Source: an uncultured Armatimonadia bacterium
GTDB taxonomy: Bacteria > Armatimonadota > Zipacnadia > CAVVLO01
Direction: 5' to 3'
Assembly (NCBI GenBank): GCA_963749155.1
Contig: CAVVLO010000001.1
Coordinates: 512,001-576,000 of the forward strand
DNA: 64,000 nt
The notes under the pieces are model-generated. The model saw only the letters and a program-made list of their open reading frames with translations. It had not been told where the DNA came from and searched no databases. A program made the translations under genes and the position numbers. How positions within the stretch are numbered: the first letter of the stretch is position 1; every line of letters begins with the position of its first letter. Below are positions 15,569 through 36,567 of this stretch, one piece after another.

Positions 15569-15637
15569 GCAGCGCTCATCTTGCATTGAGCCAGAATGAA
15601 AGCCGAGCGATAAAGTCGCTCGAACGGAGGGATACCT

Positions 15638-16108
15638 GTGTCTCGCAGGGCTCCAGCGGAACGTAGAGAGGTAGCTCCTGATCCGGTATACGGCAGCAGG
15701 ATGCTTTCCAAGATGATTAACTACCTGATGGAAGACGGCAAAAAGAGCAAGGCCGAGAAGATCGTCTACACGGCCTTTGAGATCATGGCGCAGCGCACCA
15801 AGAGCAATCCGCTCGAGGTATTCAGCAAGGCCATGCGCAACTTGATGCCGACCCTCGAGGTGCGCTCCAGGCGCGTCGGAGGACAGAGCTATCAGGTGCC
15901 AGTAGAAGTACGTCCCTCGCGCAAACTGTGCCTGGCCACTCGGTGGCTGCTTAACGCAGCCCGCGCCCGGAAGGGCAGGCCGATGGCAGAGAAGCTCGCG
16001 ATGGAATTGATGGACGCGGCGAACGGCGCCGGAGAAGCAATGAAGAAGCGTGAAGACACGCACCGGATGGCTGAATCGAACCGCGCCTTTGCGCATTATC
16101 GGTGGTAA
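15638..16108 (+). CDS. rpsG: 30S ribosomal protein uS7
   Basis: [36 protein letters not shown]. Confidence 0.98.
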
Positions 16109-16165
16109 TGAGGAGGAAGCTTCGACCAAAGCAACGATCGCTTTGATTTGAGCAACTAGGCAGGA

Positions 16166-18274
16166 ATGAGCACCAATAGTCGGACAAAAACGAGTACCAG
16201 GCGAACTGACGAGATGTCACGGGAAGTAGAGCTAGGCAAGGTCAGAAATATCGGAATCGCCGCGCATATTGACGCGGGGAAGACGACAACGACTGAGCGT
16301 ATCCTCTTCTACACCGGCAAGGCACATCGTATCGGTGAGGTAGATGACGGCACCGCGACCATGGATTACATGGCGCAGGAGCAGGAACGCGGCATTACGA
16401 TTACCTCCGCGGCAACCACCACAGAGTGGCGTGATTGCCAGGTCAATATAATAGACACTCCAGGCCACGTAGATTTCACCCTCGAGGTCGAGCGCGCACT
16501 GCGCGTGCTGGACGGGATGGTTGCTGTCTTCTGCGCGGTCGGCGGAGTACAACCCCAGTCCGAGACAGTATGGCGGCAGGCCAACAAGTATCGCGTGCCA
16601 CGCATCGCCTACATCAACAAGATGGACCGGACAGGGGCAGATTTCCACGAAGTTTTGCACCAGATGCGCGACAGGCTGCAGGCTAACGCAGTAGCCATCC
16701 AGGTGCCAATCGGCGAGGAAGAAACCTTTCTTGGGATGATTGACCTCGTCGAAATGCGGGCGCATATCTACCTCGACGACCTTGGGACCAAGCGTAGCAA
16801 CGAGGAGATCCCTCAGGATATGCTTATGTTCGCGGAAGCATACCGCGAAGCGCTCGTTGACAAGCTCTCAGAAATTGACGAAGACATCCTGACCAAGTAT
16901 GTACAAGGCGAAGAGATCTCGGCGGACGACCTTAAATCAGCCATCAGGAAAGGCGTGCTGGCCAATGTGCTAGTGCCCGTACTGTGCGGTACCTCCCTGA
17001 AGAATAAAGGCGTCCAGCCAGTCCTCGATGCAATCGTAGATTATCTCCCCTCTCCTGAAGATGTGCTTCCAGTCACTGGACAGCATCCTGTGACGGGGGA
17101 AGAAGTCATACGCGAAGCTGACGATGAGGCGCCTTTCTCGGGGCTCATTTTCAAGCTGCTTACTGACGAATATGTCGGTCGCCTGGCTTTCGTACGCACT
17201 TATTCGGGCGTGCTGAAAAAGGGTTCGGCCGTTCACAATCCGCGCACTGGCAAGATGGAGCGCGTAGGCCGGTTGCTGCGGATGCATGCCAACCGGCGCG
17301 AGGATATCGAAGCAGCCTATACTGGCGACATTGTCGCGGTGCTGGGTTTCAACGAGATCGCAACGGGCGACACAGTCTGCGAGCGGAATCATCCTGTCTT
17401 GCTCGAGCAGATGAGCTTCCCCGAGCCGGTCATCAGTCAGGCCATCGAGCCAAAGACCAAGGCCGACCTGGACAAGCTGATGAACGCGCTCGAGAAACTG
17501 TCAGCCGAGGATCCGAGCTTCAGGTTCGGGGTAGATTCGGAGACAGGCCAGCTCGTGATGTCGGGCATGGGCGAGCTGCACCTTGAGATCATGCATGACC
17601 GCCTGGTGCGCGAGTATGCGGTGGCCGCAAGTGTCGGCAAGCCGCAGGTGGCGTATCGGGAGACCGTGTCACGGACCGCGACGGTGGAAGAGCGTTATGT
17701 TAAGCAGACCGGCGGGCGGGGTATGTTCGCCCAGGTCGAGCTGAAGCTGGAACCGAAGGCCGACGGTGGCTTCGAGTTCGTGAGCGCAATCACCGGTGGG
17801 GCCATCCCGAGGGAATATATCGCTCCGGTCGAGGCTGGCATTCGCGAAGGCCTGGCCAGCGGCGTGCTGGGCGGCTATCCAGTCATCAACGTGAAAGCGA
17901 CGCTGATGGACGGGCGCATCCACGAAGTGGACTCGAACGAGATGGCCTTCCGCATCTGCGCCACTATCGCGACAAAGGAAGCTTTGCGGAAAGCAGGTTC
18001 CATACTGCTAGAGCCGCTGATGAGTCTGGAGATTGTAGGGCCCGAGGAGTTCCTGGGCGAGGTAATCGCCGACTTGAACTCGAGACGGGCGGAAATCCAG
18101 GGTATGGAACAGGGCAGTGGTGGCCAGCGCATCGTAAAGGCCGTCGCTCCGCTGTCCGAGATGTTTGGATATGCGACCGACTTGCGGAGCCGTACGCAGG
18201 GCAGGGCAACGTTCACAATGACGCCCTCGCACTACGCTCCGGTGCCTCATAACCTACTTGACAAGCTGGTCTAG
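16166..18274 (+). CDS. fusA: Elongation factor G (str-operon copy; alternative start 16214)
   Basis: [34 protein letters not shown]. Confidence 0.98.
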
Positions 18275-18306
18275 GACAGGCCGCAGGTGAGTGGAGGAAA
18301 TAACTA

Positions 18307-19509
<1,203 letters not shown>

Positions 19510-19569
19510 GCACGCAACTGGCAGCAAGCAACCTGGCAGTAAGCAACGATAAGCAAAAGGGGTTCGGCA

Positions 19570-19887
19570 ATGGCGATAGCACGCAAGATGCGTATAAAGC
19601 TGCGGAGTTTCGACCATAAGCTACTTGATCAGTCAGCGCAGAAGATCGTGGCTGCGGCGACAGAGTCGGGAGCAAGGGTGGCAGGACCAGTGCCGCTGCC
19701 CACCGAGAAGCGCGTGTATTGCATCGTGCGGCCGACGGCGCTTGGACGCAGCGAACGCAGCATGGAGCATTACGAACTGCGCACTCACAAGCGGCTGGTT
19801 GACATCATCGAGCCGACGCAGCAGACAATCGAGTCGCTTATGCGGCTGGAGCTGCCTGGCAGCGTTGAGATCGAGATCAAGCAGTAA
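19570..19887 (+). CDS. rpsJ: 30S ribosomal protein uS10
   Basis: RIKLRSFDH, GPVPLPT, RTHKRLVDI. Confidence 0.96.
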   Translation: MAIARKMRIKLRSFDHKLLDQSAQKIVAAATESGARVAGPVPLPTEKRVYCIVRPTALGRSERSMEHYELRTHKRLVDIIEPTQQTIESLMRLELPGSVEIEIKQ

Positions 19888-19923
19888 GGCCTGTTCGAAC
19901 CCAAAAGGATAGAGTGAGCGGCT

Positions 19924-20562
19924 ATGGCACAGCCCAAGTTGGCAACCAGATTCTTACTCGGCAAGAAAGTCGGGATGACGAGTATCTTCGCTGAAGACGG
20001 ACGCGTAGAAAACGTGACCGTAATCGAAGCTCCGGCTTCGGTGGTACTTCGGCGGAAGACCAAGGAATCAGATGGTTATTCGGCAGTACAGCTCGCCTTC
20101 GGTGAAGTAAAAGAGCAGCGGCTTACGAAGCCATTGCAGGGCGTATACAAGCACGCCGCAGTCGCGCCGAAGCGGACAATCCAGGAGTTCCTGGTACCCG
20201 AGGACGCAGAGTTCTCGATGGGGCAGGAGCTTACCGTGGAGCTGTTCAAGCCTGGCGATGTTATCGCGGTTACGAGCACGAGCAAGGGCAAAGGCTTCCA
20301 GGGCGTCATCAAGCGCTGGAACCACGCATGCGGCCCAATGACGCACGGCTCGAAGTCGAAAAGACGCGCAAAGTCGCAGGGCTCCACCGACGCCGGGCGC
20401 GTATTTCCCGGATTGCATCGCCCGGGTCATATGGGGCATGCCCAGGTTACCCAGGACGGACTGATGGTAGTAGCGGTGGATGCGGAGCTTAACGTGGTAA
20501 TGGTACGGGGTTCCGTGCCTGGGCCGAGCGGCAGTCTCGTGAAGCTGCGCGCGGCGAAGTAA
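19924..20562 (+). CDS. rplC: 50S ribosomal protein uL3
   Basis: GKKVGMT, DGYSAVQ, SKGKGFQGVIKRW, GSVPGP. Confidence 0.97.
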   Translation: MAQPKLATRFLLGKKVGMTSIFAEDGRVENVTVIEAPASVVLRRKTKESDGYSAVQLAFGEVKEQRLTKPLQGVYKHAAVAPKRTIQEFLVPEDAEFSMGQELTVELFKPGDVIAVTSTSKGKGFQGVIKRWNHACGPMTHGSKSKRRAKSQGSTDAGRVFPGLHRPGHMGHAQVTQDGLMVVAVDAELNVVMVRGSVPGPSGSLVKLRAAK

Positions 20563-20584
20563 GGATTCGCGGGAGGCAGTAGAA

Positions 20585-21217
20585 ATGCCAGAGCTAGCAG
20601 TTATGAATAAAGAGGGCAAAGAGACGAGCAAGGTGCAGGTCTCGGATGCGGTATTTGACGCACCGCTGCACCAGCAAGCCGTCTACCTGGCCGTAAAGAG
20701 AGTTCTCGCGAGTCAGCGGGCAGTGACTTCTTCGACGAAGACGCGGGCAGAGGTCAGAGGCGGCGGGCGCAAGCCTTTCCGTCAGAAGGGGACCGGCCGT
20801 GCTCGGCAGGGAAGCATCAGAGCTCCGCACTGGGTCGGCGGTGGCGTAACCTTTGGCCCGAAGCCTGACCGTAACTACGAGATCAAGCTGCCCAAGAAAG
20901 TTTATTGGCTGGCTATGCGTTCGGTGTTGTCCGAAAAACTGCGGCAGGGCGAACTGCTCGTGGTGGATGAGCTGAAGCTGGAAGCCATCAAGACCAGGGA
21001 GATCTCCACACTGCTGCAGCAGTTGCTCGGCGAGAAGGCAGGCAACGTGCTGGTAGTGCTCGAGGGGCGCGATGATATCGTCGAGAAATCGGCGCGCAAC
21101 CTTCCCTGGGCTCAGGTGCGCGCATCCTATGCCACCAGCGTCTATGACCTGCTGAAATATGACAATGTCGTGATGACCACTGCAGCGTTGCAGAAGCTCG
21201 AGGAGGCATGCAGCTAA
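20585..21217 (+). CDS. rplD: 50S ribosomal protein uL4
   Basis: [16 protein letters not shown]. Confidence 0.98.
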
Positions 21218-21516
21218 TGAAAGGCCTCGACTCCTATACAGTAATCGTGGCGCCAGTGTTGACTGAGAAGTCAGTAAATATGGCGCGGGAATCAAGCAAG
21301 TACACTTTTCGGGTAGCACCGACGGCGAACAAGATACAGATCGCCAAGGCCATCGAAGAAATCTTCAATGTGGACGTGACCCAGGTAAACACGCTGAAGG
21401 TACTTGGGAAAGAGCGCAAGCAGAACTTCAAAAGTCATGGCAAAACACCTGACTGGAAGAAGGCTATCATAACGCTCAAGCCCGGCCAGACGATTGACTT
21501 GTTCGAGGGCCTGTAA
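21217..21516 (+). CDS. rplW: 50S ribosomal protein uL23
   Basis: PVLTEKS, ANKIQI, WKKAII; TAATG overlap with rplD. Confidence 0.96.
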   Translation: MKGLDSYTVIVAPVLTEKSVNMARESSKYTFRVAPTANKIQIAKAIEEIFNVDVTQVNTLKVLGKERKQNFKSHGKTPDWKKAIITLKPGQTIDLFEGL

Positions 21517-21548
21517 TCGGGGTCCAGTCCCCATGAGGAGCCAAAGCA

Positions 21549-22378
21549 ATGGGCGTCAAAAAGTATAAGCCGACAACACCGTCGCGCAGGTACATGACGG
21601 GCTCGACCTTCGAAGAGATTACGAAGTCGAAGCCCGAGAAGAAACTGCTGAAGGCGCAGAAGAGCAATGCCGGACGCAACAACACCGGAAAGGTGACGGT
21701 GCGTCATCAGGGCGCAGGCGTGAAGCAGCGTTACCGGTTAGTAGACTTCAAACGCGACAAGGACGGCATGCCCGCCAAAGTTGCGGCAATCGAGTACGAT
21801 CCTAACCGGTCGGCGCGCATCGCCCTTCTGCATTATGAAGACGGAGAAAAGCGCTACATCATAGCGCCGGAAGCGCTTCGGGTTGGGATGAAGGTAGTGT
21901 CGGGCGCGGATGCCCCCATCGAGGTAGGCAACACGCTACCTCTGTCGGCTATCCCGCTGGGCCAGCTCGTTCACGCAATCGAGTTGCAGCCTGGACGGGG
22001 CGCGCAGATGGCGCGTTCGGCCGGGGCCGAGGCTCAGGTAGCCGCGAAGGAAGGCAAATATGCCACCCTTCGGCTTCCCTCTGGCGAAATGCGCATGGTG
22101 CTTCAGACCTGCAAGGCAACGCTGGGAAGAGTCGGCAACGCCGATCATGAGATTCTGGTAGACGGCAAGGCTGGACGGGCACGGTGGCGCGGTCGTCGGC
22201 CCGCAGTACGAGGCGTAACAATGAACCCAGTGGACCATCCACATGGCGGCGGCGAGGCCAAAGCGCCAATCGGCCGGCGGCTCCCGTGTCGCCAACTGGG
22301 GTGCCCGCTCTTGGATACAAGACGCGCAAGCCCAAGAAGGCCTCTGACAAGTTCATTATTCGCCGGCGCAAGAAGTAA
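21549..22378 (+). CDS. rplB: 50S ribosomal protein uL2, frameshift near 22277 (probable sequence error)
   Basis: [24 protein letters not shown]. The C-terminus [26 protein letters not shown] is in the adjacent frame. Confidence 0.96.
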
Positions 22379-22407
22379 GCGGGGCTGACCCTGCGGAGGT
22401 GTCATAA

Positions 22408-22695
22408 GTGGCTCGTTCGATGAAGAAAGGCCCGTTTGCCGATTTGCATCTGCTTGCGAAGGTACGCAAGCTGAATGAAACAGGCGGCAAGGACATTATC
22501 AAGACCTGGTCGCGCAGGAGCACCATCTTCCCCGAGATGGTCGGCCATACAATGGCAGTCCATGACGGGAAGAAGCACGTGCCGGTATTCGTGACCGAGA
22601 ATATGGTCGGGCACAAGCTTGGAGAATTCGTGCCTACACGGCATTTTCGGGGTCACGCTGGGAGCAAGTCCGAGCGCACCTCGAGAATGAAGTAG
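22408..22695 (+). CDS. rpsS: 30S ribosomal protein uS19
   Basis: [28 protein letters not shown]. Confidence 0.98.
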
Positions 22696-22726
22696 AGGCA
22701 GGCCACCTGCGAAGGGGTGTTTTACG

Positions 22727-23368
22727 TTGGCTGAAGTAAAAGCAACAGGAAAGTTTCTCAGAGGGTCGGTTTTCAAGGTGCGGCCTGTGCTGAGCGCTAT
22801 AAAAGGGATGCCTGTACGCGAGGCTAAAGCAAGCCTGGCCTATATGGGCGGCAAAGGCGCGGAGTTGGCACTGAATGTGCTGACCTCGGCAAGCGCCAAC
22901 GCGGTGGAGAACGCCGGGGCCGAGGAGTCTGCTCTGGTGGTAAAGAACGCCTTTGCAGATGAAGGCGTCACCATCAAGCGTATGCGTTTTCGCGCATATG
23001 GCAGGGCTGACCGCATCGCAAAGCGCACTTGTCACATCACGATAGTGGTGGATGAGGACGAGGAGCGCAAGGCGAAGCTGGAAGAGAAGGCCAAAGCCAA
23101 GGCGAAGGCCGCGAAGGCGACTCCCGCAAAGGGCGAGAAGAAGGCGTCTGAAAAGGCGCCCGAGGCAGAAGCCCCTGTGAAGAAAGGCCGCAAGACGAAG
23201 GCTGAAGCGCCTGTAGCCGAAGAGCCGCAGGTCGAGGCCCAGGAGCCTGAAGAGATTGTAACCGACATCGAAGAAGTCGGCGCCGACATCGAAGAGGTCG
23301 AAGAGGCCCCCGAGATGGAGCAGGCGGAAGGCGACGAGTCGGAGAGCGACAAGCAGGAAGGAGCCTAA
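22727..23368 (+). CDS. rplV: 50S ribosomal protein uL22 with about 100-aa C-terminal extension
   Basis: [24 protein letters not shown]; operon position. Confidence 0.95.
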
Positions 23369-23369
23369 G

Positions 23370-24167
23370 ATGGGTCAGAAGGTAAATCCGATCGGGTTCA
23401 GACTGGGGCAGACGCAATATTGGCGGGGACGCTGGTTTACCAGCCGCGACTATTGGAAGTCTTTGCTCGAGGATTACAGCGTGCGCAAGCACATCAGGAG
23501 CAAGCTGGCCGGGGCTGGACTCGCCGATATCATTATAGAACGGCATGGTGGAGACCGGCTACGCGTTACGATCATGAGTTCGCGTCCTGGGGTCATAATT
23601 GGCCGGCGCGGGCAGGGGATCGACGATATGCGGCTCGAGCTGGAGCGGCAGGTCAACAAGCGCGTGAACCTGACGGTAGAAGAGATCCGCGATCCTGACT
23701 TGAACGCTCAGCTTGTGGCGGATTCGATTGCCAGCAGCATCCAGCGTCGGGTTTCGTTCAGGCGCGCTATGCGCCAGGCTATCCAGCGGACGATGCGCCG
23801 CGGGGCAAAAGGCGTGCGCGTACGCTGCGCGGGCAGACTGGGCGGGGCTGAAATCGCCCGGGACGAGTCAGCCATGGAAGGCAGTGTGCCTCTCAGCACT
23901 CTGCGCGCTGATATCGATTATGCGGTGGGCGTCGCTCGCACGACCTACGGGCCCATCGGTGTAAAGGTTTGGATTTACAAGGGCGATGTGGCTTCGGAGA
24001 AAGAACAGCGCAAGCTGGCGAAGCTGCGCGCAGAAAAGGCACGTATTAAGGCCGAAGAGGCAGCGATCGCTGCGGCTGACGCAGAGGGAGAGGCAGAGGA
24101 GATGGCCGGGTTCGAGCAGGCCGTCGAGGAAGCCGAAGTGTTTGAGCAGACCGGCGATGAAGAGTAA
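23370..24167 (+). CDS. rpsC: 30S ribosomal protein uS3
   Basis: [38 protein letters not shown]. Confidence 0.98.
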
Positions 24168-24188
24168 TCGGCAGACAGGTGAACCAGT

Positions 24189-24611
24189 ATGCTAATGCCC
24201 AAAAGAACCAAATACAGGAAGATGCACCGGGGCAGTATCGCCGGTAACGCGCATCGCGGTACGAAGCTGTTGAACGGAGATATCGGACTGCGCGCAGTTG
24301 AACGCGGGATGATCACCTCGGCGCAGATCGAGTCGGCGCGTATAGCCATAACTCGCGCAGTAAAGCGTGGGGGAAAGATGTGGATCAATATCTTCCCGCA
24401 CAAGGTTATGACAGCGCGGGCGGCAGAGACTCGAATGGGCGGCGGCAAGGGCGCGCCGGACCATTGGGTAGCCGTGGTTAAGCCAGGACGCATTATGTTT
24501 GAGCTGGGTTCGGTTACGGACGAGCTCGGACATGAAGCTATGAGGCGCGCGGCGCACAAGCTCCCTATCAAGTGCAAGGTTGTGACTCGGGAGGATGAGG
24601 ACCGTGGCTAA
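24189..24611 (+). CDS. rplP: 50S ribosomal protein uL16
   Basis: [33 protein letters not shown]. Confidence 0.98.
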
Positions 24612-24810
24612 GAGCCAGGGTACGGCCGAGTTCGGCCAGATGACAGTAGAGGAGCTGCAGCGGGCGGCGAAAGAGAAGCGCGCCGACCTGTTCGAGCTGA
24701 GGCGCCAACTGGTGATGCAGCGGCTGGATAATAATCAGCGCATCAAGCAGACAAAGCGCGAACTGGCGCGGCTCCTGACAATCATTCGGCAGAAGGAAAC
24801 CGCCCAGTGA
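24595..24810 (+). CDS. rpmC: 50S ribosomal protein uL29
   Basis: [14 protein letters not shown]; position after rplP. Confidence 0.92.
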
Positions 24811-25085
24811 GCGGGCGAGGGAGAGTGGCTCCAGAGATGGCCGTCAAGACTACCAAAGAGGGCGTTGTCGTAAGCGACAAGATGGACAAGACCGTAGTGG
24901 TCGAAGTCGAGCGGCTTGTGGCGCACCCCAAGTATAAGAAGATCATGCGGCATACCAAGAAGTATCATGCGCATGACGAGAACAACGAATGTCGTATGGG
25001 CGATCGCGTGCGTCTCGAGTCGACTCGGCCGCTTTCGAAGACGAAGTGCTGGCGAGTAAGCGAGATCATCGACCGGAAGGCATAA
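24807..25085 (+). CDS. rpsQ: 30S ribosomal protein uS17
   Basis: [29 protein letters not shown]. Confidence 0.97.
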
Positions 25086-25118
25086 GAGTAGTAGCAGACC
25101 TGGCAAGGAGGCAACGCG

Positions 25119-27203
25119 TTGAAGGTTTATGAAACCGACAAGCTACGCAACCTGATCGTTGCAGGCCACCGGGGCGCAGGCAAGACCTCGCTGGTGGAAG
25201 GTATGCTCTTCGCGACGGGCGGCAGTACCCGCCTTGGACGCGTTGAAGAGGGCACTTCTACCTGTGATTACAGCCCCGAGGAGATAGACAGGAAGATAAG
25301 CATCCAGTCGGCACTGGCTTATGTCGAGACCGACGGATGCAAGGTCAACCTGATTGACACCCCTGGGTTTGGTGAATTGCTGGGCGAGGTTATTTCTACA
25401 ATAGCCGCCGCGGATGCGCTGCTTCTTGTTTTGGACGCTACAGGCGGCGTCGAAGTGATGACCGAGCAGGTCTGGAACCTGGCCCAGGCCAAGTCGGCAC
25501 CCAGTGTTGCTTTCGTTAACAAGCTGGACAAAGAGAACACCGATTTCGACGCATCGCTTGCGCAGTTGAAAGAGGCTTTTCAGGGCGTCACTTTCGCGCC
25601 TGCGGTCATCCCGATGGGCACTGCGGCTGACTTCAAAGGGGTCGTAGACGTACTGAGCGGGAAGGCTTATACCTTCGCGGGTGGCAAGGAGACCGAGGGG
25701 CCAGTGCCTGCCGAATACGCTGACGCGATGGCGACGGCAAAGGAAGCCCTGACGGAAGCGGCGGCCGAAGGCGACGACGACTTGCTCGAGAAGTACCTGG
25801 AAGAGGGCGAGCTTACCGAAGCCGAACTGCTTAAGGGCCTGGGAGCCGCAGTCGCGGCTGGGAAGGTCTGTCTGGTGTTCGGCGGCAGCGCTTACAACAA
25901 CAGTGGCACGCTGGCTCTGTTGAAGGGCCTGGTTAAGTGGATCCCTTCGCCTGACAAACTGCCGGCCATAAAGGCCACGAAGGTAAATGGCGATACCGAG
26001 GTTGAGCTGGCGCCCTCTGGCAGTTCGCCACTTACGGCCCTGGTTTTCAAGACTATCGTAGACCCGGTCGTCGGACGTGTCAGTTATCTGCGCGTCTTCA
26101 CGGGCGAGCTTTCGAGCGATGTAGCCCTGTATAACGCAAGCAAGAGCGGGTCAGAGCGACTCAGCCAGATTCTGGTACTGAAAGGCAAGAACCAGGATAC
26201 GGTCGTAAAGGCAGTGGCTGGCGATATTGTCGCAACCACCAAGCTCGATGATACCGAGACGGCTGATACACTTTGCGCGCAGGACCACCAGATGACGCTG
26301 CCCCGGATGGAATATCCGGAGCCTTTCGCGAGTCTGGCAATCAACTGCGCGAATCGCGCTGATGAAGAGAAAGTCAGCGATACGCTGAACAAGTTGCAGA
26401 AGGAAGATCCTTCTTTCCGCGCATATCGCAATCATGAGACCGAAGAGTTGCTGGTAGCAGGCCTCGGGAGCTTGCACCTGGACGTCATAGTTGATAAACT
26501 CAGGCGTCGCTCCAAGGTCGAGGTCAACACGACACCGCCGAAGGTCGCTTACCGCGAAACCATCCGCAAACGGGTAGAGGTCGAGGGGAAGCACAAGAAA
26601 CAAACCGGCGGACGTGGCCAGTTCGGGCACGTGTGGGTTCGGTTCGAGCCGCTGCCGCGCGGTGGCGGGTTCGAGTTCGAGGATGCAGTCGTGGGAGGCT
26701 CCGTGCCTCGTCAGTTCATTCCCGCAGTGGAGAAGGGCCTCGCAGAGGTCCTGCCTAAAGGCGTGCTTGCGGGATTCCCGACAGTGGATGTAAAGGCGAC
26801 TTTGTACGATGGCTCGAGCCATGCGGTTGACTCTTCGGAGTTGGCTTTCAAGCTGGCCGCTCATCTGGCTTTCAGGAAGGGCATAATGGAAGCCGATCCA
26901 GTGCTGCTTGAACCGATCAGTTATGTCGAGGTCACGGTGCCCGAGGAGTTTATGGGCGATGTGATGGGCGACTTTAACGGACGGCGTGGCCGGATCCTGG
27001 GAATGGAACCACAAGGCAACAAGCAGATCGTGAAGGCCATGGTGCCGCTGTCCGAACTTGGGATGTACAGCGCGGACCTCACCAGCAAGACGGGTGGCAA
27101 GGGTCACTTCATGATGAGGTTTGATCATTACGACGAAGTGCCGGCCCACCTGGTCCAGCACATCATCGAGCAGCACAAGAAGGATCAGGAAGAAGCCGAA
27201 TAA
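25119..27203 (+). CDS. fusA2: Second elongation factor G (EF-G II/EF-G2-like)
   Basis: GHRGAGKT, RKISI, DTPGF, NKLD, KQTGGRGQFGHV, HAVDSSELAF; TTG start with AAGGAGG RBS. Confidence 0.93.
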   Translation: MKVYETDKLRNLIVAGHRGAGKTSLVEGMLFATGGSTRLGRVEEGTSTCDYSPEEIDRKISIQSALAYVETDGCKVNLIDTPGFGELLGEVISTIAAADALLLVLDATGGVEVMTEQVWNLAQAKSAPSVAFVNKLDKENTDFDASLAQLKEAFQGVTFAPAVIPMGTAADFKGVVDVLSGKAYTFAGGKETEGPVPAEYADAMATAKEALTEAAAEGDDDLLEKYLEEGELTEAELLKGLGAAVAAGKVCLVFGGSAYNNSGTLALLKGLVKWIPSPDKLPAIKATKVNGDTEVELAPSGSSPLTALVFKTIVDPVVGRVSYLRVFTGELSSDVALYNASKSGSERLSQILVLKGKNQDTVVKAVAGDIVATTKLDDTETADTLCAQDHQMTLPRMEYPEPFASLAINCANRADEEKVSDTLNKLQKEDPSFRAYRNHETEELLVAGLGSLHLDVIVDKLRRRSKVEVNTTPPKVAYRETIRKRVEVEGKHKKQTGGRGQFGHVWVRFEPLPRGGGFEFEDAVVGGSVPRQFIPAVEKGLAEVLPKGVLAGFPTVDVKATLYDGSSHAVDSSELAFKLAAHLAFRKGIMEADPVLLEPISYVEVTVPEEFMGDVMGDFNGRRGRILGMEPQGNKQIVKAMVPLSELGMYSADLTSKTGGKGHFMMRFDHYDEVPAHLVQHIIEQHKKDQEEAE

Positions 27204-27239
27204 CGGCTTCGACTGGTTCGGTCGAGGAGAGGACTAGCA

Positions 27240-27608
27240 ATGATCGTGCCAATGACCAGGTTGAAGGTCGCAGATAACTCTGGGGCGCGTGAGATACTTT
27301 GCATCGGCGTGGTCGGGAAGGGTACAACGATCAAAGCTGGCGTTGGAGATATCATCTCGGCCGCGGTAAAAGTAGCGACGCCCAACGGGCAAGTGCAGGC
27401 CGGTACCGTGGTGCACGCCACGATAGTAAGGATGAAGGACCGGATCAGGCGTCCTGACGGGACTTATATCAGATTCGACGAAAACGCGGCGGTGTTGATC
27501 GACAAGGATGGTAATCCGCTGGGAACGCGCGTATTCGGGCCAGTAGCCCGCGAACTGCGCGAGCGGAACTATATGAAGATCATCTCGCTGGCGCCAGAGG
27601 TGCTGTAA
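27240..27608 (+). CDS. rplN: 50S ribosomal protein uL14
   Basis: [35 protein letters not shown]. Confidence 0.98.
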
Positions 27609-27609
27609 G

Positions 27610-27963
27610 GTGAAGGCTCCGAAGACCAAGATTGAGAAGCCGAAGCTGCGCAAGGGCGATACGATAGTCGTCATCGCCGGACGCGACAAGGGCGAGCGCG
27701 GCAAAGTATTGAAAGTCGACCAGGAAAGCAGTCGGGTACTGGTCGAGGGCGTGAATATGGTGAAGAAGCACCAGCGCGCCAGCGGGAAAATCCAGCAGGG
27801 CGGCATAATTGACAAGCCGGCGACCCTGGATATCTCTAACGTACAGCTTGTATGTCCCTCTTGTGGCAAGGCGACGCGGGTAACGCGCGCCAAGAACGAT
27901 GAGGGGCATTCAAATCGGGTATGCCGCAAGTGCAGCGAGACAGTGGACCAGGCCGAGGGTTAA
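27610..27963 (+). CDS. rplX: 50S ribosomal protein uL24
   Basis: KOW motif KGDTIVVIAGRDKG, VEGVN, SNVQL; CxxC..CxxC. Confidence 0.97.
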   Translation: MKAPKTKIEKPKLRKGDTIVVIAGRDKGERGKVLKVDQESSRVLVEGVNMVKKHQRASGKIQQGGIIDKPATLDISNVQLVCPSCGKATRVTRAKNDEGHSNRVCRKCSETVDQAEG

Positions 27964-27991
27964 GCCAGGCCTAGCAGCGAGGGTGTAAGAG

Positions 27992-28567
27992 ATGAGCGAA
28001 GCTAAGGAAAGCCTTTCCAGCAAGCCGCGATTGAAGGCCAAGTACGATGAAGTCATCGCAGCGAAGCTGACAGAGCAGTTCGGTTACCCGAACCTGATGG
28101 CTGTACCGCGTCTGACTAAAATCGTGGTAAGCATGGGCCTGAGTGAAGCGCGGGAGAATCCGGATGTTGTGGATCACGCCGCTACTCAGCTCGGTATCAT
28201 CACCGGCCAGAAGCCGGCAGTGCGCAAGGCAAAGAAGTCGGTAGCGGCTTTCCGCGTGCGCCAGGGGATGTCCATCGGGGCCGTAGTCACAATGCGCGGG
28301 CCACGTATGTGGGAGTTTTTCGATCGGTTGCTGACAGTAGCGCTACCACGTATCCGGGACTTCCGGGGTCTGGAAAGCAACTCTTTCGACGGGCGAGGCA
28401 ATTATTCGTTCGGACTGCGGGAGCAGACAATCTTCCCTGAAATTGATTTCGACCGGATCGATCAGGTCCGTGGGATGAATATCACCGTCGTAACGACGGC
28501 GAAGACCGATGAAGAAGCTCGGGCACTGTTGCTCGAGCTGGGGATGCCCCTGCAAAAGGGGAGCTAA
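27992..28567 (+). CDS. rplE: 50S ribosomal protein uL5
   Basis: [28 protein letters not shown]. Confidence 0.98.
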
Positions 28568-28585
28568 GGTCCGGAGGGAGTTCAA

Positions 28586-28771
28586 GTGGCGAAGAAGGCA
28601 CTGAAGATCAAGGCGGAAGCCAAGCCCAAGTTCAAGGCGCGCGGGTACAACCGATGCAAGCTGTGTGGAAGGCCGCATGGATATATGCGAGATTTCGGCC
28701 TTTGCCGTATCTGTTTCCGCGAAGGCGTCAACTGGGGACTCATCCCCGGCGTAACCAAGGCGAGCTGGTAA
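28586..28771 (+). CDS. rpsN: 30S ribosomal protein uS14, short zinc-binding type
   Basis: [25 protein letters not shown]. Confidence 0.97.
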
Positions 28772-28840
28772 GCAATGAGGACTGAAAACAAGGGCATCAC
28801 GCTTGGAGTATCCAAGGGTAAAGTGCGCAGTAGCAAGCCG

Positions 28841-29239
28841 ATGAAGGTCACTGACCCAATCGCTGATATGCTGACGCGGATCCGCAATGGCTTTCGGGCA
28901 GATCACGAGACGGTAGAGATGCCGAACTCGAAGCTGAAGGAATCCATCGCGAAAGTACTTCACGCCGAGGGTTACATCGACCGGTACCAGGTAGTGCCTG
29001 GCAAAGGTTCGGGTACCCTGCGGATCAAGTTGAAGTATATGGAGAACAGCGTAAGCGTAATCGACGGGATCGAGCGGGTCAGTAAAAGCGGCAAGCGTAT
29101 CTTCGCCGGTAAAGGCAAGATGCCGAAAGTACTGCAGGGGCTCGGTATTCTGATAGTAACCACCTCCTCTGGCGTGATGAGCGATCGAGAGGCCCGGGCA
29201 AAGGGCATCGGTGGCGAGATCCTCGCCAAGGTTTGGTAG
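28841..29239 (+). CDS. rpsH: 30S ribosomal protein uS8 (alternative start 28775)
   Basis: TDPIADMLTRIRN, GLGI, GIGGEIL. Confidence 0.97.
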   Translation: MKVTDPIADMLTRIRNGFRADHETVEMPNSKLKESIAKVLHAEGYIDRYQVVPGKGSGTLRIKLKYMENSVSVIDGIERVSKSGKRIFAGKGKMPKVLQGLGILIVTTSSGVMSDREARAKGIGGEILAKVW

Positions 29240-29250
29240 GAGGAGTAGAT

Positions 29251-29796
29251 ATGTCTCGTATAGGGCAAATGCCTATTGAGATACCAGGCGGTGTGCAAGT
29301 GACCATCGAGGGTCAGCATATCGCGGTAAAAGGGCCGAAAGGCCAGCTCGAGCGCGTAGTGCCCGAGCCGATCCAGGTCGTGCAGGAAGGTTCAGTGCTG
29401 ACGCTGGTGCGTCCGGACGATGAGCAGAACAGCAAGGCCCTGCACGGGCTGAGCCGGACCCTCGTTGCCAACCTGGTAGCAGGCGTGACGACTGGATTCC
29501 GCAAGTCGCTTGAACTGCACGGGAAGGAGTTCCGCGCTGAAGTGCGCGGTTCCAGCCTGGTGATGGATTTGGGATTCAGCCATGAGGTAGTTTACGAACC
29601 CGCAAGCAACTGCAGCTTCGAAGTGCAGGGGCAGAACCCAATACTGATCCACATAAACGGGATCGATCGGGAAGTCGTGGGCCAGACGGCAGCGACAATC
29701 CGGGCCAGAAAAAAGCCTGAGCCTTACAAGGGCAAAGGGCTGCGCTACCAGGGCGAAGTCGTCCGTCGCAAGGCGGGCAAGGCAGGCGCTCGGTAA
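29251..29796 (+). CDS. rplF: 50S ribosomal protein uL6
   Basis: MSRIG, VKGPKG, LGFSH, PEPYKGKG. Confidence 0.97.
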   Translation: MSRIGQMPIEIPGGVQVTIEGQHIAVKGPKGQLERVVPEPIQVVQEGSVLTLVRPDDEQNSKALHGLSRTLVANLVAGVTTGFRKSLELHGKEFRAEVRGSSLVMDLGFSHEVVYEPASNCSFEVQGQNPILIHINGIDREVVGQTAATIRARKKPEPYKGKGLRYQGEVVRRKAGKAGAR

Positions 29797-29828
29797 CAGG
29801 GGACAGAGTCGGTACAGGGGTGTGCCAG

Positions 29829-30197
29829 ATGGCAAGCATAAAGTCGCGAAATGAATTAAGGAAAATCCGTCAGGACCGCGGTCGGCGGAAGATCAAGGGA
29901 ACGGCCGAGCGGCCTCGGATTTGTGTATACAAGAGCCTGAAGGCGCTGTATGTACAGGTCATAGACGATGAAGCCGGGCACACGCTGATGGGGCTGACAA
30001 CTGGCGCAGGCGAGTTGAAGGACGGGCTGGAAAGCCTGACTAACCTGGCTGCCGCCGAGAAACTTGGCGAGGCAGTAGGGGCCAAACTCATCGAGCGCGG
30101 GATCACCGCAGTGGTGTTCGACCGCAGTGGCTACAAGTTCCATGGGGCCGTAAAGGCGATCGCCGATGCAGCGCGCAAAGCTGGCGTGCAGTTCTAA
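29829..30197 (+). CDS. rplR: 50S ribosomal protein uL18
   Basis: [24 protein letters not shown]. Confidence 0.97.
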
Positions 30198-30220
30198 TCG
30201 GCCAGAGCAGGAGGCAGACA

Positions 30221-30421
30221 ATGGCTGCTAAGGCAGGCAAACAAATAAAAGTCACGCTGGTACGCAGTGTCATTGGGCATACGAAATCCCAGAAAGACAC
30301 CGTACGCGCGCTTGGACTTGGAAAAATCAGTTCGAGTCGAGTGCTGCCGGACAGTCCGGCAGTGCGCGGGATGATCAACAAGGTACATCACCTTGTTGAG
30401 GTCTCGGAAGTCGGAAGCTAG
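30221..30421 (+). CDS. rpmD: 50S ribosomal protein uL30
   Basis: [27 protein letters not shown]. Confidence 0.96.
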
Positions 30422-30453
30422 CAAAGCTCCCAGGACCCGGAGGTGCTCCACAG

Positions 30454-30911
30454 GTGAAACTGCACGAGATAAAACCCGTAGAGGGAAGCATAAAGAAGAA
30501 GATGAGGGTCGGGCGCGGTCCCTCCAGCGGCAAGGGCAAGACGTCCGGTCGCGGTATGAAGGGTCAGCACGCCCACGGGCAGGTGCCGCAGGGATTTGAA
30601 GGCGGCCAGACTCCGATGTCGATGCGACTGCCGCTCAAGCGTGGCGTAAGCCGCGCGCAGCATAACCTGGGGATCTTCCGTAAGGACGTAGCTGTGGTTA
30701 ACATCAGCAAGCTGGCCCGGTTCGAGGCTGGCGCGACGGTTACACCCGAGGAACTCTACGCCCTGAATATGGCGCGTCGCACGAAAGACGGCGTCAAGAT
30801 ACTGGGGAACGGCGAACTTTCCATAGCGCTGAACGTGAAAGCGCAGGCGATCTCCAAGGTGGCCAAGGAGAAGATAGAGGCGGCGGGTGGCACCGTCGAG
30901 GTGATTAGCTG

Positions 30912-30912
<1 letters not shown>
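30454..30912 (+). CDS. rplO: 50S ribosomal protein uL15
   Basis: RVGRG, GKTSGRG, GFEGGQTP, KILGNG. Confidence 0.97.
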
Positions 30913-32902
<1,990 letters not shown>

Positions 32903-32928
32903 GACCGGGGCAGCTTGGGGATGAAGGT

Positions 32929-33687
32929 ATGCCCAGGTCGGAAAAGCCGGTAATCAAGCGGCCAGAAGAGCTTCAAGCAATGAGAGAAAGCGGCAGGCTG
33001 CTAGCGCGGACTTTTGAGGCGCTTGCTGATTTGATAAAGCCCGGGGTGACCACCCGGGAGCTGGACAGCTTTGTTGAGAACTATATAGCGCTCGGGGGCG
33101 GCAGGCCATCGTTCAAGGGATACAACGGTTATCCCGCGGCAATCTGCGCTTCACCCGAAGAGGTAGTGGTCCACGGGATTCCCGATGACCGACCTCTGGT
33201 CGAAGGCCAGATAATTGGTATCGACATCGGAGTAGAGCTGCGAGGTTGGCACTCTGACTCGGCGCGGACCTATGCAGTGGGCCAGATCAGCCAAGAGGCC
33301 GAGCGGTTGATGAAGGTCACGAAGCAGTCGCTCGAGGCCGGGATAGCACAAGCAGTGGTCGGGGCGCAGGTTGGCGATATAGGCGAGGCTGTCGAGGCGG
33401 TAGTAGAGCAGGCAGGTTATTCAGTAGTCCGAGACCTGGTCGGGCATGGGATAGGCCGTCATTTGCATGAAGCGCCCGAAGTGCCGAATTTCAAGGTGCG
33501 AGGGCGAGGGATAAGGCTCGAAGCCGGTATGACACTGGCGATAGAGCCAATGGTAAATGAAGGCGGCTGGCAGGTGCAGGTTGGCCCGGATGGGTGGACA
33601 ATCCGCACTAAAGACGGTAAACTGTCGGCTCATTTCGAGCATACAGTCGCGATAACTGAGGAGGGGCCTTGGGTCCTCACTTGTTGA
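32929..33687 (+). CDS. map: Methionine aminopeptidase type I
   Basis: VVHGIP, DSART, GHGIG, HEAP, IEPM, AHFEHT. Confidence 0.97.
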   Translation: MPRSEKPVIKRPEELQAMRESGRLLARTFEALADLIKPGVTTRELDSFVENYIALGGGRPSFKGYNGYPAAICASPEEVVVHGIPDDRPLVEGQIIGIDIGVELRGWHSDSARTYAVGQISQEAERLMKVTKQSLEAGIAQAVVGAQVGDIGEAVEAVVEQAGYSVVRDLVGHGIGRHLHEAPEVPNFKVRGRGIRLEAGMTLAIEPMVNEGGWQVQVGPDGWTIRTKDGKLSAHFEHTVAITEEGPWVLTC

Positions 33688-33707
33688 GTGAGGGCAGGCC
33701 GTAGTGG

Positions 33708-33926
33708 ATGCCCAAAGAAAAGCCGATCCGAGTCGAAGGGGTCATCACAGAGACGTTACCCAACGTCATGTACCGGGTGCGACTCGATAACGGCCACGAG
33801 TTGATCGCGCACGTGTCGGGCAAGATGAGGATGAGGTATATCCGCATCGTGAAAGGCGACCGGGTAAGTGTAGAGATGAGCCCTTACGACATAACAAAGG
33901 GACGCATCGTCTGGCTTCACAGGTAA
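33708..33926 (+). CDS. infA: Translation initiation factor IF-1
   Basis: ETLPN, SGKMR, GDRV, SPYD. Confidence 0.98.
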
Positions 33927-33968
33927 AAGGAAGCAACCGCCCGAGAAGGCGTTTAGGAGTGGCAAGCA

Positions 33969-34082
33969 ATGAAAGTACATTCGGCAGTAAAGGTACGCTG
34001 TGACAGGTGCAAGATTGTAAAGCGGCGGGGAGTAGTGCGGGTTATCTGCACCAATCCTCGGCACAAGCAGCGACAGGGATAG
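33969..34082 (+). CDS. rpmJ: 50S ribosomal protein bL36 (not in ORF track)
   Basis: Manual translation [37 protein letters not shown]. Confidence 0.97.
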
Positions 34083-34103
34083 GCACGTTGGAGGTGCACT
34101 GGT

Positions 34104-34487
34104 TTGGCGCGTATCGCGGGAATTGACCTTCCGAACCACAAGCGGGTAGAGATCGCCCTGACGTATATCTACGGGATAGGGCGCTCCAGGTCGCTGGAGA
34201 TAATGGCGCAGGCCGGGATCGACCGGGCCGCAAAGGTCGAGTCGCTGACCGACGACGACCTTACCCGGGTCAGAGAGATCCTCGAACGGGACTATATGAT
34301 CGAGGGAGATCTTCGGCGTCAGGTAACACAGAATATCAAGCGACTGATCGAGATCGGTTGTTATCGGGGCGTGCGACACAAGATTGGACTGCCAGTACGC
34401 GGGCAGCGGACTCGGACTAATGCGCGGACTCGCAAGGGTCGCAAACGCACAGTCGCGGGCAAGAAGAAGGCCCCGGGCAAGAAGTAA
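34104..34487 (+). CDS. rpsM: 30S ribosomal protein uS13
   Basis: [24 protein letters not shown]. Confidence 0.98.
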
Positions 34488-34516
34488 AGGCGCCAGGCAG
34501 GTATTAGGAGGACGAA

Positions 34517-34912
34517 ATGGCCAGGAAGCAAGTCAGTCGCGGAGCCAAGAAGAAGACACGCGTGCAGTCGCCACTGGGGCGCGCAGTCATCAAGGCTAGC
34601 TTCAACAACACGATAATTACGATGACAGATACGACAGGTAATGTCATCTCGTGGGCCAGCGGCGGCACCGTAGGATATCAGGGAAGCCGGAAGGGATTCC
34701 CGTTTGCGGCGCAGCTAGCGGCAGAGCAGGCAGCAAAGAAGGCAATGGATGCTGGACTGCGGAAGGTGGATGTCGTGATGCGCGGGCCTGGCCCCGGTCG
34801 CGAGACAGCCTTCAGGACGCTGCAAAGCTCCGGGCTTGAGATCGCGAGCGTGAAGGACGTAGCAAGTATTCCGCACAATGGTTGCCGCCCCAAGAAGCGG
34901 CGTCGCATATAG
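34517..34912 (+). CDS. rpsK: 30S ribosomal protein uS11
   Basis: [22 protein letters not shown]. Confidence 0.98.
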
Positions 34913-35592: not shown

Positions 35593-36567
35593 TTGGCGGA
35601 AATCGTGCCAGAGATAACCTGGCTGGAAGCTGGAAAGCATCGTGGCAAGTGCGTCGTGGAGCCTCTGGTGAGAGGCTATGGGACTACGCTTGGGAATGCG
35701 CTCAGGCGCATCCTGCTTTCGCAGATAACCGGCGCGGCCATCGCAGCGATGAAGCTGGAAGGCATACAGCATGAATTTGCCACAGCGCCCGGAATGCGCG
35801 AAAGCGCGCTGGAGTTCATGCTCAATGTGAAGAAAGTGGCCTTCCGGGCCAAAGGCACCGGCGAATGGACTTGCAGCGTGTATGCGAGAGGCGAGGGCGA
35901 GGTGCTGGCTGGCGACATTAAGACGCCGCCGGATCTCGAGATCGTGAATCCCGAGTTGCACCTGATGACGCTGACTGCTGAGGAAGCCGTGCTGGACGCC
36001 GAGTTCATCGTGCGGACTGGTAAAGGCTATTGCCCATCGGAAGACCATACGGACTTGCCGAAGAATCAGATAGGGGTAATCCCTGTTGATAGCATTTTCA
36101 GTCCGGTAACCGGGGCCAATGCCATAGTAGAGCCCACCCGAGTAGGGCGCGATACGAACTATGACAGGCTGGTGCTGGATGTCACAACTGATGGCTCCAT
36201 GACGCCAGAAGAGGCAGTAGATGCCGCAGCCAAAGACTTGCTGAAGCATCTGCGTATCTTCCTGACCGTTAGCGGCGCGCCACTTTCAGCGGAAGAAGGC
36301 GGGCTTGGTCTGGGCGATGGGGACGTAACTCGCAGGCGTATCGAGGATATGGGCTTCTCGCAGCGGGCTTTCAACTGCCTGCAGAGAGAGGGTATTGAGA
36401 CTCTTGGCGCGCTAATGCAGAAGAGTGAACCTGATTTGATGGCGATGAAGAACTTCGGCAGGAAGTCGCTCGATGAGGTTATCGAGAAGCTGAACGAACT
36501 GGGACTCAGCCTGAAGAGCGAAGAAGGTCCTGCTGTCGAAGAGGCGCCTGATTACATCGAAGAATGA
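35593..36567 (+). CDS. rpoA: RNA polymerase alpha subunit
   Basis: GYGTTLGNALRRILLS, DSIFSPV, NFGRKSL. Confidence 0.98.
   Translation: MAEIVPEITWLEAGKHRGKCVVEPLVRGYGTTLGNALRRILLSQITGAAIAAMKLEGIQHEFATAPGMRESALEFMLNVKKVAFRAKGTGEWTCSVYARGEGEVLAGDIKTPPDLEIVNPELHLMTLTAEEAVLDAEFIVRTGKGYCPSEDHTDLPKNQIGVIPVDSIFSPVTGANAIVEPTRVGRDTNYDRLVLDVTTDGSMTPEEAVDAAAKDLLKHLRIFLTVSGAPLSAEEGGLGLGDGDVTRRRIEDMGFSQRAFNCLQREGIETLGALMQKSEPDLMAMKNFGRKSLDEVIEKLNELGLSLKSEEGPAVEEAPDYIEE

Follow-up and report, generated by a model that had tools for sequence, protein, structure and literature searches.

An EFG II-type EF-G paralog between rpsQ and rplN in the ribosomal-protein gene cluster of an Armatimonadota genome

A 64,000-nucleotide (nt) stretch of DNA from an uncultured Armatimonadia bacterium (assembly GCA_963749155.1, contig CAVVLO010000001.1, positions 512,001 to 576,000; here called the window) raises the question of why a second gene for elongation factor G (EF-G) should interrupt the cluster of ribosomal-protein genes, between rpsQ and rplN. 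The gene, EF-G2, occupies positions 25119 to 27203 of the window on the forward strand and encodes an EF-G paralog of the EFG II subfamily. Such paralogs are the most widespread bacterial duplicates of EF-G, and the available excerpts of PMC4342817 call their role unknown. The three members that have been studied differ from each other in behavior, and gene context has so far been of little help because the genes stand alone. An EF-G2 gene locked in the cluster at two conserved sites, as described below for Armatimonadota, constitutes a natural experiment in which selection favors synthesis with ribosomes; it renders the question of the role of EF-G2 testable and does not reveal a new mechanism.

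We hold the identity and the wiring of the gene with high confidence. Our overall reading, held with moderate confidence, is that EF-G2 is an intact member of EFG II, inherited vertically in Armatimonadota and embedded in the str-S10-spc cluster, whose synthesis would be coupled to that of ribosomes and which would act as a slow or GTPase-poor factor. The functional part of this reading is tentative and is argued largely by analogy: EF-G2 may be a slow translocase or a ribosome-state-specific factor, poor in GTP hydrolysis and working constitutively beside EF-G.

Identity of EF-G2 and its place between rpsQ and rplN

EF-G2 is an intact frame of 2,085 nt that begins with TTG and encodes 694 amino acids (aa), and its N-terminus agrees with those of its relatives in alignments (MK.Y...RN). 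Pfam recognized all five EF-G domains, namely GTP_EFTU (with the G' insert), EF-G_D2, EFG_III, EFG_IV, and EFG_C, and the top NCBIfam model was NF009381, “elongation factor G” (884 bits). Compared with the product of the canonical fusA gene of the same cluster (16166 to 18274), the protein displayed 38% identity over its full length with no large gaps. A spacer of 33 nt (25086 to 25118), which has no unusual fold (z, +0.46), separates the gene from rpsQ and carries the Shine-Dalgarno sequence AGGAGG at 25106 to 25111, 7 nt before the TTG; the 36-nt spacer to rplN (27204 to 27239) carries the Shine-Dalgarno-like GAGGAGAGG at 27224 to 27232. The motifs read from the protein are the P-loop GHRGAGKTS (25164 to 25190), switch I RKISI (residues 58 to 62; 25290 to 25304) where canonical EF-G has RGITI, the G3 motif DTPGF (25356 to 25370) where canonical EF-G has DTPGH, and the G4 motif NKLD (25518 to 25529), while alignments place the domain IV loop KHKKQTGGRGQF at about 26586 to 26624. 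An earlier reading of this DNA (the original prediction) had described a full-length EF-G paralog with 33- and 36-nt gaps, a strong ribosome-binding site, and the RKISI and DTPGF motifs, and each of these details was recovered here.

Judged from its sequence, the gene is probably functional. The frame is intact, 104 columns are invariant across the 19 EF-G2 sequences from the same class, with domain IV the best-conserved part, and, among the strain differences listed between contigs and the window, 21 of the 23 within EF-G2 fall at third codon positions (142 further rows of the table are not included in this count), which points to purifying selection on EF-G2.

Contigs assembled from public sequencing runs were aligned to positions 24600 to 27800. 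DNA contigs of one run (X1, in which 0.89 of the sampled words were present and which may be the source sample) covered 24963 to 25650 (record 3) and 25653 to 27602 (record 5), and those of a run from a different study (X2) covered 24912 to 25282 (record 26) and 27102 to 27800 (record 32), so that both junctions of EF-G2 were bridged in both data sets. Misassembly at the junctions, against which the original prediction had cautioned, is ruled out by these short-read contigs from two studies, and the gene order recurs in dozens of independent assemblies. Joints that skip about 2,680 nt (24892 to 27572, and similar) were also seen, with sides of 20 to 34 letters and low likeness; they were read as directly adjacent S17 and L14 genes of other organisms and carry no information on this genome.

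According to the available excerpts of PMC3150367, members of EFG II have a diverged G domain, have lost the RGITI consensus, and show extra conservation in loop I of domain IV, and their “type I” positions differ from EFG I (Thermus EF-G numbering) as A19G, T28L, T64S, I316T, A360G, and G379K/R. EF-G2 carries the EFG II residue at all six of these positions in our alignments, as G16, L25, S61, the T of FKT (canonical FKI or FKL), the G of KGK (canonical HAN), and the K of TTKL (canonical VLGF or VVGL). In terms of the motifs, the signature held in common comprises a P-loop that begins with Gly where EFG I has Ala, a Leu following GKT[ST], Ser for the Thr of RGITI, and the Thr, Gly, and Lys of domain II, together with a basic domain IV loop, HKKQTGG. 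The RGITI consensus is absent (RKISI in the window and R-x-[IVML]-S-[IV] in class relatives). Excerpts of PMC4342817 further state that Gly replaces the monovalent-cation-binding Asp of the P-loop in EFGII, and the same Gly for Asp appears in EF-G2 (GHRGAGKT versus canonical AHIDAGKT).

Other attributes of EF-G2 likewise match the subfamily as described in the parts of PMC3150367 and PMC4342817 that were available. Both have the five-domain architecture of EF-G and a canonical EF-G as companion; EFG II proteins always have a companion EF-G, mainly of the EFG I type and encoded in the str operon, and here the canonical fusA lies in the same cluster. In both phylogenetic trees described below, the canonical rows, all with DTPGH, split from the rest with 100% support, and EF-G2 fell on the EFG II side. 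The protein is not a canonical EFG I member, as it has DTPGF, RKISI, and GHRGAGKT and is encoded between rpsQ and rplN, not in the str operon. Where the window departs from the earlier description is in context and degree of divergence: the excerpts of PMC3150367 tie conserved context (the str operon) to EFG I alone and describe no ribosomal-protein context for EFG II, that study predates the availability of Armatimonadota genomes, and the window protein is less diverged than a typical EFG II protein.

Several more specific assignments were tried and rejected. EF-G2 scored 568 bits against the Bacteroidota EF-G2 model NF058620 (cut-off, 1000), 594 bits against NF009377, “EF-G-like protein EF-G2” (cut-off, 890), and 298 bits against NF012153 for ribosomal protection of the Tet(M)/Tet(O) type (cut-off, 775). 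The spdEFG1 and spdEFG2 subfamilies were dismissed since no switch I insertion or gap was present relative to canonical EF-G; spdEFG1 has a three-residue KDG insertion there, and spdEFG proteins occur in Spirochaetes, Planctomycetes, and delta-proteobacteria (excerpts of PMC3150367). EF-G2 did pass the cut-off of the EF-G equivalog TIGR00484 (704 bits versus 659), so annotation pipelines would be expected to call two “fusA” genes at this locus. Against solved structures it scored 634 bits with canonical Thermus EF-G, 474 with 1wdt, 454 with 7uvp/8dmf, and 437 with 9k0z, which is consistent with a mildly diverged EFG II member.

The original prediction had singled out RKISI and the replacement of the catalytic His by Phe. 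Both turned out to be the ordinary EFG II signature, and the protein is therefore not new. The residue after DxPG was Tyr in 37 and Phe in 40 of 77 Bacillota relatives and Tyr in all 19 relatives from the same class; across 76 relatives from diverse phyla it was Tyr in 52, Phe in 5, Asp in 14, Glu in 2, Val in 1, and His in 2. Among the 60 rows of Armatimonadota paralogs in the tree it was Tyr, Phe, Gly, or Leu and never His. Some lineages with the arrangement of the window (loci L263, L265, and L273) have Leu or Gly at this catalytic position instead of an aromatic residue. Separately, the G4 motif is degenerate in class relatives L086, L091, L094, L095, and L098, which have NKMA, SKMT, TKLE, AKMT, and TKLD, respectively, for NKxD; nucleotide specificity may thus be relaxed in parts of the clade, while the window protein keeps NKLD.

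Two sites within the cluster across Armatimonadota

An EF-G2 relative was present in all 40 genomes of the same class, which represent 12 families, and all 19 loci fetched from this class share the order S17-EF-G2-L14, with the three genes on one strand. Among named records, the arrangement S17-EF-G2-L14 was found in 20/20 loci titled Armatimonadota, Armatimonadia, WS1, or Zipacnadia, one of which is cut just upstream. In the other 54 named-record loci (from Binatia, Solirubrobacterales, the candidate phyla radiation, and other groups), the gene had neither S17 nor L14 as a neighbor; 12 of these loci have S10 and/or L3 downstream and represent canonical fusA. The gap between EF-G2 and L14 measured 12 to 76 nt in 40 loci.

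To survey the phylum, 121 evenly drawn Armatimonadota genomes were searched with EF-G2 and L14 and the coordinates were compared; the counts for EF-G2 rest on the best 150 of 221 matches. EF-G2 lies immediately upstream of L14 in at least 36 of the 121 genomes, belonging to 15 families, with a gap between match edges of 11 to 111 nt in 34 genomes and of 328 and 675 nt in two. In at least 43 genomes from 18 families it instead follows L14 on the same strand, 0.9 to 1.4 kb away, and in one genome it lies 3.5 kb downstream. This downstream site was resolved as rplN-rplX-rplE-EF-G2-rpsZ-rpsH (L5-EF-G2-S14) in 4/4 loci inspected and in five further named Armatimonadota loci. Most of Armatimonadota thus carry EF-G2 embedded in the S10-spc cluster, at one or the other of two sites. 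Among the matches listed, families f16 and f25 and most of f38 have a single EF-G match. The embedded copy of family f40 (L263) is more diverged than usual, with 505 bits to the window EF-G2.

Outside the phylum no such embedding was encountered. Ribosomal-protein, secY, adk, map, or infA neighbors were found at 0 of 80 Bacillota EFG II loci (4-kb flanks) and at 0 of 80 EFG II loci from about 20 other phyla (1.5-kb flanks), and a further 70 non-Armatimonadota loci had no such neighbor apart from one infA match on the opposite strand. The premise of the original prediction that EF-G II genes normally stand alone is borne out by the two sets of 80. The possibility it had raised, that the arrangement is already documented as widespread, held in one respect and failed in the other: the arrangement is widespread in Armatimonadota genomes, and no published description of an EF-G2 gene embedded in a ribosomal-protein operon was found in full-text literature searches or in excerpts of EFG II papers, although the supplements of those papers may list contexts. 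The wiring therefore appears to be new and the protein does not, being an ordinary member of a known and poorly understood subfamily. In practical terms, the embedding breaks the rpsQ-rplN adjacency that operon and synteny tools assume.

The descent of these copies was examined in two trees. In a FastTree analysis of 104 rows, 22 of 23 copies from S17-L14 sites formed one clade (support, 96), with the window on a long branch on an unresolved backbone, and 22 of 23 copies from L5-S14 sites formed another (support, 96). The second clade also holds four stand-alone copies, a copy 2.5 kb beyond L5, and one metagenome-assembled genome (MAG). A quick IQ-TREE tree of 50 rows gave the same picture with weaker support. 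The best identity of EF-G2 was 52%, to a Bacillota MAG. Horizontal replacement of the window copy from Bacillota nevertheless found no support: in approximately unbiased (AU) tests, constraining the window to group with its class improved on the free quick tree by 29.8 log-likelihood (lnL) units (p-AU, 0.77). Placing all Armatimonadota EF-G2 in one clade, a group that was defined after the tree was known and that includes stand-alone rows, cost 1.09 lnL (p-AU, 0.49). A clade of embedded copies alone was rejected (P = 0.0004) because the stand-alone rows L296 and L133 nest firmly inside the L5-S14 clade. Together, the data fit a single ancient EFG II gene in the phylum that would have moved once between the two cluster sites and would occasionally have left the cluster or been lost. 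Excerpts of PMC3150367 describe the deep branches of EFG II as erased.

Expression, function, and competing explanations

To what extent EF-G2 is made with ribosomal proteins was assessed from signals in the DNA, codon usage, and RNA-derived contigs. A consensus scan of positions 15000 to 34900 on the forward strand found no promoter- or terminator-like site in either EF-G2 spacer, in agreement with the original prediction; over the whole interval, the totals did not stand out from those of shuffled sequence (7 versus 7.5 and 19 versus 17.1). What the original prediction had overlooked is a stable stem-loop over the EF-G2 stop codon (27182 to 27219), with an inner stem that pairs 27192 to 27198 with 27204 to 27210, a minimum free energy of −31.1, and a z score of −3.04 (−4.05 in a second computation). 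No U-tract follows, and it is not a canonical intrinsic terminator. The fold is lineage-specific, as 37 of 39 relatives lack a comparable one (z above −2). No conserved regulatory RNA was found at the EF-G2 junctions, and the Rfam matches in the window are three tRNAs alone.

The codon adaptation index (CAI) of EF-G2 was 0.708, close to that of fusA (0.705) and within the span of the ribosomal proteins (0.59 to 0.77), against a background of 0.639 ± 0.042 for 34 other long open reading frames (ORFs) of the window. Contigs from RNA libraries bridge EF-G2 to rplN in two libraries (X18 record 14, 26081 to 27320; X19 record 22, 26808 to 27492), and X18 record 9 extends from rpmC across rpsQ and 17 nt into EF-G2; parts of the aligned stretch are without cover in X19. 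The contigs over the EF-G2-rplN junction give a weak hint of co-transcription and are not proof of a single transcript. Co-transcription is nevertheless what we infer, because the spacers lack the length to accommodate both a promoter and a terminator and hold no consensus signal, each gene has a Shine-Dalgarno sequence of its own, and codon usage agrees. Considering also the tiny gaps, the conservation of the arrangement across the phylum, and the RNA contigs, co-expression with ribosomal proteins, as the original prediction had proposed, is the most economical explanation. The gene is most likely read from the ribosomal-protein polycistron, and its output would then follow ribosome synthesis, which suggests that EF-G2 is made together with ribosomes and not only under stress. 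The further step of the original prediction, to a housekeeping or assembly role rather than a stress role, is drawn from gene context and is tentative.

In the model that we propose, EF-G2 would be transcribed on the polycistronic ribosomal-protein mRNA without a separate promoter or terminator, and the strong ribosome-binding site in front of the gene would drive its translation, so that its synthesis would rise and fall with ribosome production beside that of canonical EF-G. The protein should bind GTP, as the Lys and Thr of the P-loop, DxxG, and NKLD are kept. The retention of domains II to V and a very conserved, more basic domain IV tip suggest that it would occupy the factor site of the ribosome and place domain IV in the decoding center. 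The loss of the catalytic His (here Phe), of the P-loop cation Asp (here Gly), and of RGITI makes canonical ribosome-activated GTPase probably weak or absent, and EF-G2 would then lack the canonical activation of hydrolysis by the sarcin-ricin loop. It would accordingly be a slow translocase, or a factor specific for some state of the ribosome, that hydrolyzes GTP poorly or has no need of its hydrolysis and that works constitutively beside EF-G instead of as a starvation-induced substitute.

Three characterized proteins serve for comparison. The EF-G-2 of Thermus thermophilus (PDB 1wdt/2dy1) is, like the window protein, an EFG II member with an aromatic residue for the His and no RGITI, but the residue there is Tyr (DAPGY), whereas the Phe of the window has no hydroxyl. 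In Mycobacterium smegmatis EF-G2 (PDB 9k0z/9k10) the His is likewise replaced (by Tyr), and P-loop and switch I are altered. That protein is much more diverged, differs from the window EF-G2 in its P-loop (GPSGG versus GHRGAGKT), and aligned with it in two stretches (437 bits). It is reported to have no ribosome-dependent GTPase or recycling activity and to be nonessential and stress associated (excerpts of bioRxiv 10.64898/2026.05.25.727771), a role that contrasts with the ribosome-coupled gene context described here. The Bacteroides thetaiotaomicron EF-G2 (7uvp/8dmf; NF058620) is also an EF-G paralog, but the window protein, being below the NF058620 cut-off, is not in that group of orthologs. 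Its gene is reportedly starvation induced and stands alone. Papers that cite Han et al. 2023 EMBO J describe the protein itself as capable of slow translocation in the absence of GTP hydrolysis.

A number of observations weigh against our reading. With respect to wiring, 41 of the 121 genomes showed no adjacency among the matches listed, some of them with a stand-alone copy on another contig, and five named-record loci titled Fimbriimonadales, Fimbriimonas, or Armatimonadetes stand alone. Within EFG II, neither the backbone of the tree nor the placement of the window copy is resolved. With respect to expression, the promoter scan used a sigma-70-type consensus only, and Armatimonadota promoters are uncharacterized; the hairpin over the stop codon could stabilize, attenuate, or process the transcript in this lineage; and the CAI of EF-G2 is only about 1.6 standard deviations above a background that includes unfiltered ORFs. 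The RNA libraries X18 and X19 are metatranscriptomes from one study, with strains 96 to 98% identical, and their contigs may include DNA. With respect to function, Thermus EF-G-2 is reported to bind and hydrolyze GTP and to support poly(Phe) synthesis (excerpts of PMC3150367, citing Connell et al.). As that protein has Tyr and yet reportedly hydrolyzes GTP, loss of the His is no proof of loss of GTPase, and the motif changes alone do not establish a dead GTPase. Finally, the mild divergence of EF-G2, which matches canonical EF-G (634 bits) better than solved EFG II proteins and passes TIGR00484, means that it might retain more canonical activity.

Of the other explanations for the locus, one holds that EF-G2 is a factor of the stress or hibernation type like its mycobacterial namesake, which dampens or protects translation by binding nonrotated 70S ribosomes or 50S subunits with no GTP hydrolysis, and that the gene came to its place by neutral insertion at a permissive operon boundary, its real control being post-transcriptional. 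The EFG II signature it has in common with MsmEF-G2 (no His, no RGITI), the location of both insertion sites at gene boundaries in a long cluster, and the lineage-specific hairpin, which indicates that local mRNA structure can differ between lineages, are all compatible with this. We nonetheless consider it unlikely. Each of two different positions in the cluster has persisted through many families, which argues for selection on co-expression and not for neutrality; a strong Shine-Dalgarno sequence precedes the gene, whose codon usage is fusA-like; and the protein is closer to canonical EF-G (634 bits) than to MsmEF-G2 (437 bits). A division of labor with EF-G, in which one protein translocates and the other recycles ribosomes with RRF, as in Borrelia, mitochondria, and Pseudomonas, would account for two EF-Gs in one cluster in a genome that has RRF, and split functions are documented for other EF-G pairs (excerpts of PMC3150367 and bioRxiv 10.64898/2026.05.25.727771). 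In the same sources, however, the known pairs are of the spdEFG or EFG I type, the recycling members keep the His and GTPase activity, and MsmEF-G2, an EFG II member, cannot recycle; given also that EF-G2 has no KDG insertion in switch I and that the canonical fusA is fully intact, such a division is highly improbable.

A role in ribosome assembly or quality control, with partial takeover from TypA/BipA, would explain synthesis together with ribosomal proteins. The genome encodes LepA, RRF, and two tuf genes, and neither TypA/BipA nor RF3 was found above cut-off in this 100%-complete genome. TypA was present in none of 10 genomes of the class (including that of the window) and in 70 of the 121 phylum genomes, its presence by arrangement being 8 of 36 for S17-L14, 28 of 44 for L5-S14, and 34 of 41 for the rest; 44 of the 51 genomes without TypA carry an embedded EF-G2. 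These counts, however, lack phylogenetic independence, as entire families have both states in common, and 36 genomes have both TypA and an embedded EF-G2. No EFG II member is known in assembly, and domain IV, which TypA lacks, is the best-conserved part of EF-G2. We therefore rate this explanation as quite improbable; the distribution of TypA is the sole hint toward the assembly idea of the original prediction and constitutes a lead, not evidence. The remaining alternative, that the locus is an artefact of misassembly or of a chimeric bin, or that the gene is independently transcribed and located there by chance, draws on the frameshifts in rpsD and adk (described below) and on the contamination estimate of 5.87%. 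It is scarcely credible in view of the contigs from two studies over both junctions and the same order in 19/19 and 20/20 related loci, and gaps of 12 to 76 nt could hardly accommodate a promoter and terminator specific to EF-G2.

Beyond the ribosome-coupled, GTPase-poor factor that we favor, a more ambitious generalization may be considered. Armatimonadota may have drawn an EFG II factor into the core ribosome regulon, on the S10-spc polycistron at one of two alternative sites, each maintained over phylum-scale time, as a constitutive, ribosome-proportional, GTPase-poor second translocase or obligatory partner; we regard this as possible but doubtful. In lineages that lost TypA/BipA, such a core-regulon EF-G2 may cover part of the role of TypA. 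If true, the core-regulon reading would overturn the view of EF-G2 proteins as accessory stress or starvation factors and would provide the first natural system with housekeeping translocation without hydrolysis.

The surrounding cluster

EF-G2 lies in a contiguous str-S10-spc-alpha cluster on the forward strand (15128 to 37221), as delimited by NCBIfam matches and ORF lists. The order is rpsL, rpsG, fusA, tuf, rpsJ, rplC, rplD, rplW, rplB, rpsS, rplV, rpsC, rplP, rpmC, rpsQ, EF-G2, rplN, rplX, rplE, rpsZ, rpsH, rplF, rplR, rpmD, rplO, secY, adk, map, infA, three ORFs, rpsD, the ORF 35593 to 36567, and rplQ. The three ORFs (34104 to 34487 and 34517 to 34912, preceded by a 37-aa ORF at 33969 to 34082) stand where rpmJ, rpsM, and rpsK are usual, and the ORF 35593 to 36567 stands at the usual place of rpoA; these are assigned by position alone. 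Genes rpoB and rpoC lie upstream of the cluster, and a strong terminator-like hairpin (15096 to 15123) precedes rpsL. The canonical fusA (16166 to 18274, forward strand), which is of the EFG I type (TIGR00484, 1025 bits; DTPGH intact and NKMD), follows rpsL and rpsG 7 kb upstream of EF-G2. The immediate neighbors of EF-G2 on the same strand are rpsQ (S17; 24807 to 25085; TIGR03635, 118 bits), whose match begins at residue 15 and whose true start is likely the ATG at 24837, and rplN (L14; 27240 to 27608; TIGR01067, 161 bits), the first gene of the spc block.

Compared with the textbook cluster, the rpsL-to-rplQ order is the same here apart from the insertion, which places an extra translational GTPase gene between rpsQ and rplN; in other Armatimonadota, EF-G2 lies between rplE and rpsZ instead. 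This genome also differs from the textbook order in that rpsE is gone from between rplR and rpmD. Specifically, rplR ends at 30197 and rpmD starts at 30221, 23 nt apart, and the sole S5 match in the genome lies on another contig (C5:317594-318055; 199 bits, above cut-off). Other Armatimonadota loci have a gap of about 500 to 700 nt between rplR and rpmD, presumably filled by rpsE.

Two genes of the cluster are split between frames. For rpsD (S4), the frame 34930 to 35358 matches model positions 1 to 130 and the frame 35312 to 35557 matches positions 125 to 202; for adk, the frame 32248 to 32433 matches positions 1 to 56 and the frame 32384 to 32902 matches positions 54 to 213. As rpsD is essential and single copy, its frameshift is most likely an assembly indel, and both splits, two within 3 kb, are probably errors of this kind. 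Three ribosomal proteins are unusually long and carry extensions, namely L22 (22727 to 23368; 213 aa, with the model matched at residues 7 to 108), S3 (23370 to 24167; 265 aa, matched at residues 1 to 209), and L17 (36598 to 37221; 207 aa, with the best match from residue 124).

The genome as a whole (4.17 Mb in 7 contigs, 100% complete, with a CheckM-type contamination of 5.87%) contains exactly two EF-G genes, the canonical fusA and EF-G2. A second tuf-like gene, a 406-aa frame, lies outside the window (C1:937229-938086), the first being at 18307 to 19509 of the window; identical scores in the LepA and TypA scans indicate that the two are probably near-identical copies. The three tRNA genes that are the sole Rfam matches in the window stand in tandem at 42011 to 42280.

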